Shown here piece by piece: positions 155 through 56,057 of a stretch of 56,867 nt of DNA. Under the pieces are notes generated by a model. That model did no database searches, had not been told where the DNA came from, and worked only from the letters and a program-made list of their open reading frames with translations. The DNA lies in IMG/VR virus record IMGVR_UViG_3300049042_000288, positions 1 to 56,867 of that record. The stretch is one strand, 5' to 3'. Numbering within the stretch: position 1 is the stretch's first letter; each line of letters opens with the position of its first letter. The translations under genes and the position numbers were made by a program. The stretch comes from a virus (lineage: Duplodnaviria; Caudoviricetes).

Positions 155-336
155 TCTCGGATCAGCTCAACCTTGGGGACCGTGATCTGGTCGTGGGGCA
201 TGAAGGCCCCGCAGCGCCGGGCGTTCCACCGGGCGATCCTGCGTGCCTCGGACTTGCCCCCGGCGTCCACGGTCTCCGTGTAGGTCTTGATGCCATCGAT
301 GCGGCTGGTGACCTTGATGGTGCAGAGGTAGTCCAT
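151..336 (-). CDS. Hypothetical early protein (MDYLCTIKV...)
   Basis: ATG overlaps the upstream TAA (TAATG). Its TGA stop is the first element of cassette 1. Confidence 0.75.
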   Translation of the reverse strand: MDYLCTIKVTSRIDGIKTYTETVDAGGKSEARRIARWNARRCGAFMPHDQITVPKVELIRD

Positions 337-551
337 TAGGCCACCGCCAGCAGGTTGAGGGTCTTCTCGATGATCTTGTGCTGGCGCTTCAGCGGCGAGA
401 CGACGCGCCATCCCTTCTTCGTGTTTTCCACGACCTGCGTGTAGTCGATCACTCCGCTGAAGCCGAAGCTTACGACGTAGAGCTTTTCGCCGTCTTTGGC
501 GTAAACCGTGGTGCCGCTCAGGCAGCTATTGGAAATTCGTTCGATGTTCAT
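336..551 (-). CDS. Hypothetical early protein (MNIERISNS...)
   Basis: ATG at 551 directly after the cassette RBS GGAGACACCAC. Confidence 0.8.
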   Translation of the reverse strand: MNIERISNSCLSGTTVYAKDGEKLYVVSFGFSGVIDYTQVVENTKKGWRVVSPLKRQHKIIEKTLNLLAVA

Positions 552-655
552 GTGGTGTCTCCGTTCCGGGCAGCGCGCCAACCGCGCCGCCAACACAAGT
601 GATCATAAAGGAGATCGCAGATAAGTCAAAGGATTTATCTGCGACATGTCGTCAG
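549..655 (-). repeat. Early regulatory cassette copy 2
   Basis: CTGACGACATGTCGCA box; TTGACT(629-624)-N16-TATGAT(607-602); same hairpin and RBS as copy 1. Confidence 0.9.
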
Positions 656-1107
656 CCTTTGAAGACCCAGTACCCATACACGCACCGGGTGCCGTCGCGG
701 CTGCAGTCGTAGGTGTCGTGGATGATCCCGTCGATCACCGCGCAGTAGTGCCGGGTCACCCGGACGATGATCCTGCCCATGGGCAGGTCCTCGGGGCGTA
801 GGTGGACCTTGCAGCCCGACCCGATGGTCATGCACGTCACCCAGACGAAGCCGTGCTTGACCATCCAGTCCTTGAACCACTTGCGCGTGGTCCAGATACC
901 GTGGTTCGCCGTTCGCCGACCGCAGCTCTTCTTGCGGCGGCTGCGCTTGGTCTGGCGCTGGTCAGCGTTGCCCTCTGCCATGGCGTCGTAGACGTACTGG
1001 TAGTCCAGCCCGGCTGCGATGGCGATGGCCCGGGTCACGCAGTCGCCTGCGCTACCCTTGAAGCCTGCCGCTGCGCGGCCACCGTCGTTGCAGATGAAGT
1101 TGCCCTT
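652..1107 (-). CDS. Conserved-looking phage protein, possible papain-like Cys/His fold; no canonical start at the apparent N-terminus
   Basis: From 1107 the frame reads KGNFICNDGGRAAAGFKGSAGDCVTRAIAIA...HYCAVIDGIIHDTYD. The first GTG (1038) lies after the GDC motif. Confidence 0.7.
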   Translation of the reverse strand, partial: KGNFICNDGGRAAAGFKGSAGDCVTRAIAIAAGLDYQYVYDAMAEGNADQRQTKRSRRKKSCGRRTANHGIWTTRKWFKDWMVKHGFVWVTCMTIGSGCKVHLRPEDLPMGRIIVRVTRHYCAVIDGIIHDTYDCSRDGTRCVYGYWVFKG

Positions 1108-1342
1108 AGGACACCTCCTGCAGGCTGGGCCACATCTTTAAGACGCGCGGCTTGATCAGGCTTGGCGTCTGCTCAATGGCGTACCGCGCGTTGCGCTCGT
1201 TGATGAAGTGCGCCGCGTTCAGCGGGCTCTCAGCGCCGAATGGCGACAGGATGCGATTGCGCTCCGGGTTCTGTTCGAACTTCGCAAAGATCATTTCGCC
1301 GAGCGCGTTGTTGCAGGCAATGACGTAAACTACGTTTTTCAT
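1106..1342 (-). CDS. Hypothetical early protein (MKNVVYVIAC...)
   Basis: ATG after the cassette RBS; 78 aa. Confidence 0.8.
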   Translation of the reverse strand: MKNVVYVIACNNALGEMIFAKFEQNPERNRILSPFGAESPLNAAHFINERNARYAIEQTPSLIKPRVLKMWPSLQEVS

Positions 1343-1447
1343 GTGGTGTCTCCGGTTCGTCCCGGCGGCGCGTGCCGTCGGCGACAGGTGCAGTTATAGG
1401 GGATCGCACTTAATCTGTCAAATCGATTAAGTGCGACATGTCGTCAG
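1340..1447 (-). repeat. Early regulatory cassette copy 3
   Basis: CTGACGACATGTCGCA box; TTGACA(1421-1416)-N17-TATAAC(1398-1393); variant GC hairpin; GGAGACACCACATG. Confidence 0.9.
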
Positions 1448-1740
1448 GAGACGATCTCCGTCGTTGGAACGAACTGCTCGCGCCATGCGTCCTGCACAGC
1501 CTGCGAGAACTTCTGTTCAACCTCAAGGTCGTTGAGGCGGTTCCAGAACGGGTGGTGATCGCCGTCGTTGTAGCGGCGCTGATAGGCGATGGCCATGCGG
1601 CGATAGCGGTCCAGCGCCTTGTAGGCTTTGCCTGTCGGCATCCTGCCGCCGTTCTTCGCCAGAAGATCGTTGATGTGGTTGTACAGGGCGTCAACCATCG
1701 GCATGAGAGGGCTGGTGCCGCTCCAGAAGCTGCTTTCCAT
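1444..1740 (-). CDS. Hypothetical early protein (may extend to 1761)
   Basis: 98-aa ORF whose TGA is the first element of cassette 3. In-frame AAG GGC AAC TCC ATC lies upstream of the ATG. Confidence 0.75.
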   Translation of the reverse strand: MESSFWSGTSPLMPMVDALYNHINDLLAKNGGRMPTGKAYKALDRYRRMAIAYQRRYNDGDHHPFWNRLNDLEVEQKFSQAVQDAWREQFVPTTEIVS

Positions 1741-1759
1741 GGTCGAGATGGAGTTGCCC

Positions 1760-1954
1760 TTAAGCCACCTCCACGATGTTCATGGCGACGCCCGTCCTTT
1801 CGAGCAACATGTTGCGAGCGGCGACCGCGCGCTCCCGGCTTTCCCAGCCGTTCGCTTCTGAACGGTCGGTGGTGTACACGATGCTACCGCCATCCGTGTC
1901 GTCGATGTAGGCGAGGTAGTCACTGCCGTTCTGGGCAATAAGAAAGAATTTCAT
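1760..1954 (-). CDS. Hypothetical early protein (MKFFLIAQNG...)
   Basis: ATG after GGAGACACCAT. Confidence 0.8.
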   Translation of the reverse strand: MKFFLIAQNGSDYLAYIDDTDGGSIVYTTDRSEANGWESRERAVAARNMLLERTGVAMNIVEVA

Positions 1955-2059: not shown

Positions 2060-2418
2060 GCGATACCGAGCTTCTTCTTTGCGTGTTCGATCTGCTTGAA
2101 GTACTTCGCTGGCACCTTCGGCCCGTCGCTCTCGCGGTCGCCCGTCGCGTTCAGGTCGAACGTCTTCGCCAGACCTGTGTCAGCGTCGTAGTAACCGTAG
2201 CCACGGCAGACGAGACCTTCTTCTTCGTTACCCCGGTTGCGCCAGAGTTCGAGTTGCCACGTCAAGCTGCCTTCGAGAGCTTCCTTCAGGTGATGCGAGT
2301 ATCCGTGACCGATGCGGTCAAGAAACCACTGCAGGTCGTCCGAGAAGTGGTGATCGACGATGTCACCATACTCGTCCACCTCGTGCAGGGTCCATTCGTA
2401 TGAGACGGTGGTTTTCAT
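2056..2418 (-). CDS. Hypothetical early protein (MKTTVSYEW...)
   Basis: Coupled to the upstream gene by TAATG. Its TGA is the first element of cassette 4. Confidence 0.8.
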   Translation of the reverse strand: MKTTVSYEWTLHEVDEYGDIVDHHFSDDLQWFLDRIGHGYSHHLKEALEGSLTWQLELWRNRGNEEEGLVCRGYGYYDADTGLAKTFDLNATGDRESDGPKVPAKYFKQIEHAKKKLGIA

Positions 2419-2594
2419 TAGCGTGCCACCTCGCAGTGTTCGACCTTTACGCGCATCTTGAGCGATGCCTCGCGCTCGGCCTTGAACTTCTTGCGAGCTT
2501 CGCGTGCATGCACGGCAACGATGAAGCCGTCCGTCTCAGCATAGTACATGCCGTCTTTTTCGTAGCAGGCGGCGATGAGGTAAAACTTTTTCAT
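2418..2594 (-). CDS. Hypothetical early protein (MKKFYLIAAC...)
   Basis: ATG at 2594 after the cassette RBS. Confidence 0.75.
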   Translation of the reverse strand: MKKFYLIAACYEKDGMYYAETDGFIVAVHAREARKKFKAEREASLKMRVKVEHCEVAR

Positions 2595-2698
2595 GTGGTG
2601 TCTCCGGTTCGTCGCAGCGCGCCGTCGCGCTGCCAACACCGATCAATATAAAGGGATCGCCGATTATTGCAAGCTGATTATATGCGACATGTTGTCAG
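2592..2698 (-). repeat. Early regulatory cassette copy 5 (head of the array)
   Basis: CTGACAACATGTCGCA box; TTGCAA(2672-2667)-N16-TATATT(2650-2645); hairpin GCAGCGCG-ACGG-CGCGCTGC; GGAGACACCACATG. Confidence 0.85.
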
Positions 2699-2699
2699 G

Positions 2700-2738
2700 G
2701 TAAACTGACTGCCGCCCAGTTAGTTTACTCTTTCTTTC
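2700..2738 (+). terminator. Hairpin with pyrimidine tail in the divergent intergenic region
   Basis: GTAAACTGACTG-CCGCC-CAGTTAGTTTAC followed by TCTTTCTTT. Confidence 0.45.
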
Positions 2739-53146: not shown

Positions 53147-53167
53147 GTTCTTCTCCTGTTGAATGTC

Positions 53168-53202
53168 GCGGGAGGAGGAGACACCACATCCACTCCTCCC
53201 GC
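53168..53202 (-). terminator. 3' hairpin with anti-RBS loop, copy 1
   Basis: Minus strand GCGGGAGGAG-TGGATGTGGTGTCTC-CTCCTCCCGC just after the stop of 53219-53914; no clear U tract. Confidence 0.65.
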
Positions 53203-53218: not shown

Positions 53219-53914
53219 TTAGAGCGCCGCGAGAGCCCGATCTTCCCAGCCGTACCCTTCTTCGTCACGGCTGACGTATTCCTGTGCATCGTAGTCATAG
53301 ACCACGTCTTCGTGGCCATGGCTCTCACCGACCGACACCTTCAGGCCGTGGCCCTTCGGGTTGTGCGGCAGGCCGTACTTCTCGGCGCAGATCGGGCCGT
53401 AGCCAACTTCGATGCTGCCTGCATCGCTCAGCTCGCGGCTGCAGAAGCAGCAGTTGCCCGTGGCGTGGCCGTGCGCGGCTGCGGCCTTGACCGGGTCACA
53501 GGCGAAGGCCTTGACCTTCTCGAACGCCTGAGTGGCGTTCTCAGAGGCGACCGGATACCAGCGGCCATCCGCCGTGATCTTGCCGAGGTACTCAGTGCCC
53601 TGCTTCACGTAGGTGGCACCGATGTTGGTCGACGTGGCCTTCGCGGGCGAGAGCGTCACGCCAGCGACCTTGATCTTCGGGTTCTTCAGGCCCGCCGACA
53701 GGGCCTTCGAGAAGAGACCGCCGATGCGGGCGAGGTCAACAACTTCGCGTTCCGTGACAGGGGCCGTGGCTTTCTCGGCCAGCTTCGTGACCCAGTAGAT
53801 CTGCTTCGCCGACAGCGAACCGTAGCGGTCGAACGAGGCGATCAGACTCGACGCGAAATCGCGGTCCTTGATCGAGAGATTGTTGAGGTTGGTCTTGAGG
53901 GCTGAAATCGTCAT
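53219..53914 (-). CDS. DUF6011-like zinc-finger domain protein
   Basis: ATG after the cassette RBS; GNCCFCSRELSD..SIEVGYGPICA. Confidence 0.75.
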   Translation of the reverse strand: MTISALKTNLNNLSIKDRDFASSLIASFDRYGSLSAKQIYWVTKLAEKATAPVTEREVVDLARIGGLFSKALSAGLKNPKIKVAGVTLSPAKATSTNIGATYVKQGTEYLGKITADGRWYPVASENATQAFEKVKAFACDPVKAAAAHGHATGNCCFCSRELSDAGSIEVGYGPICAEKYGLPHNPKGHGLKVSVGESHGHEDVVYDYDAQEYVSRDEEGYGWEDRALAAL

Positions 53915-54010
53915 GTGGTGTCTCCGTCTTCGCCGCAGCGCGCCATCGCGCCGCCGACAGGTGAAGTTATAGGGGATCACCTTTTACTTGTCAAACGAAA
54001 TGGGTGCGAC
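53912..54010 (-). repeat. Early regulatory cassette copy 6
   Basis: TGTCGCA half box; TTGACA(53994-53989)-N17-TATAAC(53971-53966); hairpin GCGGCGCG-ATGG-CGCGCTGC; GGAGACACCACATG. Confidence 0.85.
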
Positions 54011-54097
54011 AAAAGCTCCCCCGGGAGGTTGTTGGGCACGCCCTCCCGGGAGTTCTCCCCCTCGCGTGCGGACGGATGCCGACGCGAGGGAAGCTTG
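54011..54097 (-). terminator. Double-hairpin 3' UTR/terminator
   Basis: CCCTCGCGT...ACGCGAGGG, then CCCGGGAGG...CCTCCCGGG, then CTTTTG. Confidence 0.6.
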
Positions 54098-55602: not shown

Positions 55603-55777
55603 CTTCGCGGTCCTTCAATCTGACGTTGCTCTCGAAGTACGGTCTCCAGTAGCCATGCACTTGTCGGTACGCAGCCTCCTTGTCGGTGGCCCAGACGCTC
55701 TCTGCATTCCACCCTTCGATACCGTCGCGCCCGCACTCGTACACGTCGACCTCGTACAGCTTTAGTCCCTTATCCAT
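55586..55777 (-). CDS. Hypothetical protein (MDKGLKLYEV...)
   Basis: RBS GAGG; short overlaps with both neighbours. Confidence 0.65.
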   Translation of the reverse strand: MDKGLKLYEVDVYECGRDGIEGWNAESVWATDKEAAYRQVHGYWRPYFESNVRLKDREDAKAK

Positions 55778-55976
55778 GGGTGACCGCCTCGTCCGTGTTG
55801 ACGACACGTGGTTTGGCTTCCATGAACTTCGCCGGATCAGCGAAAGCCATGCGGATGCAAAGCTCTGCGTCTTCCTCTGTGGCGAAAACGTAAGGAGGGC
55901 AACCGCTGGGCTTGAGACAGACCCGCTCGTGCTTTCCTTTTTTGGTGACAATAGATAACTCAATTTTGAACCCCAC
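55770..55976 (-). CDS. Hypothetical protein
   Basis: GTG after AAGGAG. Confidence 0.65.
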   Translation of the reverse strand: MGFKIELSIVTKKGKHERVCLKPSGCPPYVFATEEDAELCIRMAFADPAKFMEAKPRVVNTDEAVTHG

Positions 55977-56005: not shown

Positions 56006-56047
56006 AAAAGCGGGAGGAGGGGAGACACCACATCATCCTCCTCCCGC
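56006..56047 (-). terminator. Terminator hairpin with anti-RBS loop, copy 2
   Basis: Minus strand GCGGGAGGAGG-ATGATGTGGTGTCTCC-CCTCCTCCCGC-TTTT after the DUF932-like gene stop. Confidence 0.75.
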
Positions 56048-56057
56048 CCCGGGCGGC

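Follow-up and report, generated by a model that had tools for sequence, protein, structure and literature searches.

In gene pairs coupled by TAATG, the final codons of the first gene include a Shine-Dalgarno (SD) sequence, and the TAA stop of that gene overlaps the start codon of the second. In T4-type phages, the PeSL cassettes consist of small accessory genes, many of them without known relatives, flanked by short promoter-plus-hairpin repeats, and the available text of their description places the breakpoints of insertions, deletions and replacements at these repeats (PMC2839356). Both arrangements meet in the virus record IMGVR_UViG_3300049042_000288 (Duplodnaviria; Caudoviricetes), which is the window analyzed in this work: the whole record, 56,867 bases long and rated complete in a genome-collection search. 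The left 2.7 kb of the window, read on the minus strand, is a series of small early-gene cassettes in which a repeat of about 100 nt is followed by a gene 1 and then by a gene 2. At the stop-start junctions of cassettes A and D, and in an allele of gene B2 found in another sequencing run, the TAATG coupling is of the textbook kind; junctions B and C keep the stop, but the codon that overlaps it is AAG, and coupling there would need a downstream ATG (gene C2) or a non-canonical codon (gene B2). The array also differs from the PeSL cassettes, in that it belongs to a 56.9-kb phage that is not a T4-type myovirus, its promoters and terminator are predicted, and it has a second, much shorter recombination site, located at the stop-start junction between gene 1 and gene 2 and extending into the first codons of gene 2. 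We propose that the start codon was lost by a one-base deletion which recombination probably spread between cassettes, leaving B2 silenced or strongly reduced and requiring no new reading of the code.

Start-less junctions and their origin

Junctions B and C are identical at 24 of 27 nt, lie in unrelated flanks and were recovered as a direct repeat (D5, 27 nt, 89%, 654 nt apart; Table 1). The pattern GGAGGTG-NNN-TAAG-GGC-AAC has exactly two matches in the window, while 0 of 100 dinucleotide shuffles contained any match. In both junctions, AAG lies 6 nt 3' of GGAGG, and the downstream frame, which is +1 in relation to gene 1, reads AAG GGC AAC TYC ATC. Counted from the preceding in-frame stop, the first ATG, GTG or TTG of the downstream frame is GTG 1038 for junction B and ATG 1740 for junction C. 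All four junctions have an SD (GGAGGTG, GAGGTG or GCGGTG) that precedes the start position by 5-8 nt; the start codon overlapping the stop is missing in B and C and present in A, D and the other allele of B2. A sequence-only reading of this region had described the two matching junctions between unrelated genes, the +1 frame with its AAG after GGAGG and the ordinary TAATG of the remaining two cassettes, a description that the minus-strand and frame readings, together with the pattern and repeat searches, bear out.

Table 1. Positions in the window of the stop-start junctions, of the genes on both sides of junctions B and C, and of the cassette repeats.
Feature	Coordinates	Strand	Description
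Junction A	335-347	-	GCGGTGGCCTAATG; intact TAATG (339-335); flanks like junction B on both sides
Junction B	1092-1118	-	GGAGGTG, TCC, TAA (1108-1106) of B1, AAG (1107-1105), GGC AAC TTC ATC of B2; minus-strand letters 1118-1092, GGAGGTGTCCTAAGGGCAACTTCATCT
Junction C	1746-1772	-	GGAGGTG, GCT, TAA (1762-1760) of C1, AAG (1761-1759), GGC AAC TCC ATC; minus-strand letters 1772-1746, GGAGGTGGCTTAAGGGCAACTCCATCT
Junction D	2414-2431	-	GAGGTGGCACGCTAATG; intact TAATG (2418-2414)
Gene B1	1106-1342	-	78 aa, first gene of cassette B; C-terminus ...LQEVS*; last codons encode the SD for B2
Gene B2	652-1107	-	151 codons counted from AAG; first canonical start is codon 24 (GTG 1038); in-frame ATC 1095-1093
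Gene C1	1760-1954	-	64 aa, first gene of cassette C; C-terminus ...NIVEVA*; weak match to phrog_37251
Gene C2	1444-1740	-	98 aa from ATG 1740; 104-105 codons if counted from the junction; orphan
Promoter/hairpin/ribosome-binding-site repeat, cassette B	1338-1452	-	alignment, repeat search
Five further repeat copies	43-160, 547-660, 1950-2064, 2590-2710, 53910-54030	-	alignment, repeat search

The window was compared with contigs (Logan) of four DNA sequencing runs, X1, X2, X4 and X6; X2, X4 and X6 cover only part of the stretch, and the parts uncovered there are no evidence of absence. The X1 contig over 1081-1793 showed 0 differences and 0 gaps. The X2 contig over 1339-2051, which comes from another study, presented 8 substitutions and 0 gaps and has TAAG at 1762-1759, with one of the substitutions (1763 A>G) changing GCT to GCC directly before the TAAG of junction C. 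Insertions or deletions relative to the window were reported in none of the four runs. In addition, a 128-aa form of the B2 protein starting at GTG is encoded on two ENA contigs, one of them with a P-to-R change. Since independent public contigs show identical letters, the TAAG is real and is not an assembly error. A sequencing or assembly artefact, with TAATG as the true sequence at both sites, could appeal to the fact that one base missing twice at the same motif is a conceivable systematic error, and to X1, which shows both junctions and is possibly the window's own source sample; the independent support comes from X2 and the variant ENA protein. As X2 shows junction C free of gaps and also assembles the TAATG form correctly at B2, and as the ENA assemblies carry the 128-aa GTG-start calls, including the variant, we regard an artefact as extremely improbable. 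The sequence-only reading had reasoned that two occurrences make an error unlikely; the contigs agree with it on the error, but the two sites, being copies of one sequence, do not count as independent occurrences.

The start used by relatives of B2 was examined at 63 loci obtained from viral and metagenome protein scans, in 56 of which the N-terminus is visible. A canonical start lies within 3 codons of the AAG position at 55 of these 56 loci (53 ATG, 1 GTG and 1 TTG). The exception, L045 (metagenome contig Ga0126308_10092246), has no canonical start in frame around the position at which the family begins and carries a 4-nt duplication where its near-twins L046 and L048 have ATGGATTGGCAC; this may be a further natural indel that disrupts a start, or an error due to low depth. 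The N-terminus MGNFI is found in the closest proteins, P0001 (91%), P0122, P0124, P0003, P0004, P0005, P0007 and P0010, of which P0122 and P0124 fall in the same or a neighbouring 90% cluster. In the window, the N-terminus of B2 is (K)GNFI, with AAG exactly at the position of the family's ATG. P0001 is encoded together with P0127, a 78-aa relative of B1 with the C-terminus ...LQEVA, on one 58,020-nt contig, the closest relative.

The TAATG form itself was found in X2, where the contig over 998-1105 has the gene-strand letters GGAGGTGGCCTAATG followed by GGGCAAC, behind a different gene 1 (the GGAGGTGGCCTAATGGGCAAC form). In X6, the 237 nt of B1 are replaced by 220 other letters, and since 220 is 1 mod 3 this length fits an extra T, which we infer there. 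These comparisons indicate that ATG is ancestral for B2. As AAG occupies the position of the family's ATG and a TAATG allele exists elsewhere, TAAG is best understood as TAATG minus its T. The lost base would lie inside the start codon, so its loss does not alter the frame from GGC on, and the downstream gene comes to stand in +1 to gene 1 as an automatic result.

Searches beyond these proteins returned little, in collections that may omit records very near the window. A DNA search of the phage collection gave 2 weak matches, covering 6-10% of the query. The MGNFI subgroup was absent from the 23 viral-contig loci and 40 metagenome loci, all at 68% identity or less, and the exact TAAG and TAATG junction patterns with their downstream codons had 0 matches each in viral contigs. 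A 15-nt junction pattern had at least 119 matches, none with a DGG motif encoded nearby. The cassette motif gave 14 single matches and a looser junction pattern 5 viral and 48 genome matches, and a B2 relative is encoded at 0 of these 67 loci; by our own rough estimate (17 bases in 596 Gb), the looser junction matches look like chance.

The junction also behaves as a point of recombination. A 59-nt contig of X1 (depth 8.4) joins 1081-1091, on the B2 side, to 1746-1793, on the C1 side, through GCC-TAAG, so that either B1 or C1 can precede B2, with TAAG in each case. Contig joints in X1, X4 and X6 are placed at 1344/1955, 1361/2039 and 1388/1985, at cassette repeats, and also at 1462/2030 and 1105/1343, so that breakpoints of differences between related genomes at repeats, as described for PeSL cassettes, are present in these runs. 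Junctions A and B are identical at 23 of 33 nt upstream and have similar first codons after a 3-nt gap, and unrelated first genes end in similar SD-encoding C-termini (...QEVS, ...VEVA and ...LAVA, with ...QEVA in P0127). The two TAAG junctions thus appear to be copies of one shared module boundary, and GGC AAC TCC ATC at junction C is the remnant of an MGNFI-type N-terminus fused in frame to C2.

The normal boundary would consist of the end of gene 1 with its embedded SD, in the form GGAGGTG-GCN-TAATG-GGC-AAC, where GAG GTG GCN encodes E V A. In this phage lineage, the T of the ATG would have been deleted, with TAA kept and AAG left at the start position. Recombination within the shared stretch of about 27-45 nt would carry the defective junction between cassettes, which explains its presence before two genes that are unrelated. 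The deletion could have originated at junction C or at junction B, with transfer in either direction. A 65-aa variant of C1, P0129, has the C-terminus ...NIVEIVS, which corresponds to the last residues of C2; this form points to a strain that lost C2 through a deletion between short matches containing GGAG.

Genes downstream of the TAAG junctions

B2 is a member of a very large family from phages and metagenomes, and the protein search with it recovered about 8,000 relatives of approximately 150 aa, covering 94-100% of the query. With an E-value of 1.5e-11, B2 matches phrog_3754, of unknown function, and no Pfam or NCBIfam family matched it. Residues D7, G8, G9, R10, G17, D21, C22, H119 and D130, among others, are invariant in 24 aligned sequences. 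In the AlphaFold model (pLDDT 91.4, pTM 0.88), C22 heads the helix 22-31 and H119 is on the strand 119-124. The 50 rows listed by VIA-align are all papain-like cysteine peptidases (PeiR, the C39 domains of PCAT1/ComA, staphopains and Josephins); the best matches (PeiR, PCAT1 C39 and staphopain) reached Z 6.8, against the tool's caution line of 8, with a root-mean-square deviation of 3.2 over 106 residues. Foldseek with the same model found nothing at E <= 0.001, the best hits being Tae4, Josephin and C39 domains at E 0.4-2. With moderate confidence, we assign B2 to the papain-like (clan CA) Cys-His fold, as a putative peptidase.

The invariant residues D7, G8, G9, R10, G17, D21 and C22 are all encoded upstream of GTG 1038. 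The claim that a start at this codon would remove a conserved NDGGR...GDC segment, made initially from the letters of one sequence, is thus confirmed by the alignment, and a B2 started there would be inactive, lacking both the NDGGR segment and C22. Gene callers in two sources start B2 at GTG 1038 and give a protein of 128 aa (P0121, P0002 and P0123). As this product has neither NDGGR nor Cys22, the database entries for this lineage of B2 are taken to be truncated.

In E. coli reporters, AUC and the other near-cognates AUA, AUU and CUG gave 1-2% of the AUG level, and codons beyond AUG, GUG, UUG and the four near-cognates gave 0.01-1%, in the available text of Hecht et al. (10.1101/063800); AAG, whose middle base differs, is not among the four. 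The replacement of ATG by AAG has been used in E. coli to make mRNAs non-translatable, according to the accessible part of another study (PMC2582610). Because AUC and other codons gave such low levels and AAG serves as a null start, B2 is likely silent or strongly reduced in this phage. No canonical start precedes the catalytic Cys behind junction B, and B2 would be a null or a strong hypomorph, produced at best at a few per cent of its normal level from ATC 1095 or AAG. The phage could tolerate such a loss, B2 being an accessory gene of a hyperplastic region.

For C2 the cost would be much lower. The in-frame ATG 1740 stands 19 nt 3' of the stop and 27 nt 3' of GGAGG, and by eye no separate SD precedes it; ribosomes terminating at the TAA would reinitiate at this codon, and the deletion would then cost 7 residues. 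Among 5.8 billion proteins, the search for relatives of C2 returned only C2 itself. All the variants observed in other runs are synonymous, 3 of 3 in C2 and 4 of 4 in C1, so both appear to be live genes and C2 a true orphan under constraint.

Alternative readings of the TAAG junction

The sequence-only reading had offered three interpretations, namely a recombination scar, a programmed +1 fusion and non-AUG reinitiation. The shared boundary, the TAATG behind other genes and the recombinant contig speak for the first, the evidence below speaks against the second, and the third, at AAG or ATC, is unlikely. In prfB (RF2), an SD just upstream of a sense codon and a stop precedes a downstream +1 frame, and an SD-stimulated shift of this kind at TCC-TAA-G and GCT-TAA-G would produce B1-B2 and C1-C2 fusion proteins. 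The downstream frame is indeed +1 in both junctions and the stop codon would be in the A site, close to a strong SD; 2 nt separate GGAGG from TCC or GCT, a spacing that is also ordinary for a TAATG start and so does not discriminate. The stop context of prfB is weak, and here it is TAA-G. In +1 slippage, the peptidyl-tRNA has to re-pair in the new frame, and on TCC or GCT it cannot re-pair on CCT or CTT, so that there is no slippery codon and the poor re-pairing anticipated from the letters is borne out. Folding z-scores of the four junctions (-0.10, +0.04, -1.49 and +1.21, the first two for the TAAG junctions) show no significant RNA structure, and a small hairpin between the SD and a CATCT stretch, found in both TAAG junctions, is no better than in shuffles. 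In the TAATG allele of X2, B2 has a separate ATG and lies in the other frame, which means that a fusion frame is not conserved; the homologues, of about 150 aa, stand alone and begin with M. A check of homologues had been suggested for TAATG, fusion or a kept TAAG; canonical starts and the X2 allele answer for the first, and no fusion was seen among the 11 longer homologues, which show C-terminal tails or likely miscalled N-terminal extensions and by eye do not resemble any gene 1 of the window, forms above 263 aa not having been sought. Programmed +1 frameshifting lacks most of its defining features at this locus, and we consider it very improbable.

Functional reinitiation on a non-canonical codon is less improbable. 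Ribosomes terminating at the TAA and held by the SD would restart at AAG 1107 or at ATC 1095, 10 nt downstream, giving a low level of B2 tightly coupled to gene 1, with TAAG acting as an expression dimmer. The AUU of infC is a natural non-AUG start in bacteria, and the locus resembles such starts in having a strong SD before a non-AUG codon at the family start position. An in-frame ATC follows in both junctions, and TAAGG, which we take to resemble the 5' part of an extended SD, is at a suitable distance from it, although this ATC is merely inherited from the MGNFI N-terminus. B2 keeps all the family-invariant residues, and several contigs carry its start-less allele, preceded by one or the other of two upstream genes; its relatives at 90% identity or more, on the other hand, keep ATG. 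The reporter levels cited above cut both ways, since AUC reached 1-2% of the AUG level and a signal could be measured even for unrelated codons (10.1101/063800), while AAG was chosen as a non-translatable start (PMC2582610). A literature search on AAG start or initiation codons found, in the accessible parts of its sources, nothing on a natural AAG start in bacteria or phages. In a bolder form, the TAAG junction would be a working device, in which a 7-nt SD tether allows restart on AAG or on ATC four codons on, so that a trace of peptidase is made coupled to the translation of gene 1, as a heritable and recombination-mobile dimmer. We regard low-level functional reading of B2, this form included, as unlikely, and the device taken by itself as quite doubtful; if true, AAG would for the first time be seen in natural use as a start codon of the bacterial type.

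The spread of a one-base deletion with silencing or strong reduction of B2 is therefore the reading that we prefer, and some observations weigh against it. The intact invariant residues show no decay of B2, which fits a recent loss and a still-expressed gene equally. The start-less B2 is found on 4 contigs, in 3 protein entries and, in X1, in two upstream contexts, and so it persists and spreads rather than being quickly purged. The TAAG of junction C is common to two studies at about 1% divergence, and is therefore not a brand-new mutation. The variants of B2 against other runs, 6 synonymous and 6 non-synonymous and in part from contigs less than 90% alike, are uninformative and decide nothing, and X1 may be the window's own sample.

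Cassette array and meaning of the allele pair

The ORF (open reading frame) list presents four complete left-end cassettes, each with a gene 1 of 58-78 aa followed by a gene 2. The cassette repeat contains ACATGTCGCA, a TTGACA-like box, a TATAAC-like box, a short inverted repeat, a GC-rich stretch and GGAGACACCAYATG, and the six aligned copies have a mean column identity of 76%. Exact copies of the ribosome-binding-site/ATG motif number 6 on the minus strand, of which 5 belong to the left end and the sixth is at 53912-53925; with 2 mismatches allowed, 11 matches were found against 0.55 expected. A strict promoter scan detected 3 promoter-like sites (0.8 expected), 2 in cassette D and 1 in cassette A. 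In cassettes B, E and F, TTGACA-17 nt-TATAAC/TATAAA is visible by eye in the alignment, a form outside the rule of the strict scan. The repeat search found a palindrome at 2010-2039 in cassette C, and the inverted repeats GCACTTAATC/GATTAAGTGC in cassette B, with like ones in cassette E, were seen by eye. The terminator scan returned a single site, 2697-2731 (+), at the outer edge of cassette D, against 2.5 expected from shuffles, and none in the other cassette repeats.

Elsewhere in the window, GC-rich hairpins (GGGAGGAGG...CCTCCTCCC) are located at 53165-53200 and 56010-56050, 3' of minus-strand genes. The loops of both carry the reverse complement of the cassette ribosome-binding-site motif, GGAGACACCACATC (+), at 53177-53190 and 56021-56034, and these hairpins are possible terminators, or else possible antisense copies of the ribosome-binding site. 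At 55770-55790 (-), a stop-start overlap, ATGGATAAGGGA, has its downstream ATG 5 nt before the upstream TAA, and TAAGGG is here part of an ordinary arrangement. Pfam gave nothing above threshold for the 8 proteins scanned, and NCBIfam no family for the 4 scanned; a match of gene 336-551 to PF05774 was sub-threshold (E 0.015; 16 bits, where the cut-off is 25) and was rejected as implausible. The runs containing the stretch are mostly labelled freshwater metagenomes, a habitat that we do not press from a comparison of four runs.

The finding is mostly an ordinary one, a start codon lost by a one-base deletion. Its meaning for these cassettes is that the stop-start junction inside the cassette acts as a recombination point, besides the intergenic promoter repeat, so that a junction can be copied before unrelated genes even when it is defective. 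For annotation, it shows how gene callers mis-start B2 and report a 128-aa protein without the catalytic Cys. TAATG and TAAG form a natural allele pair of one gene in wild populations, which bears on reinitiation without a start codon near a strong SD.

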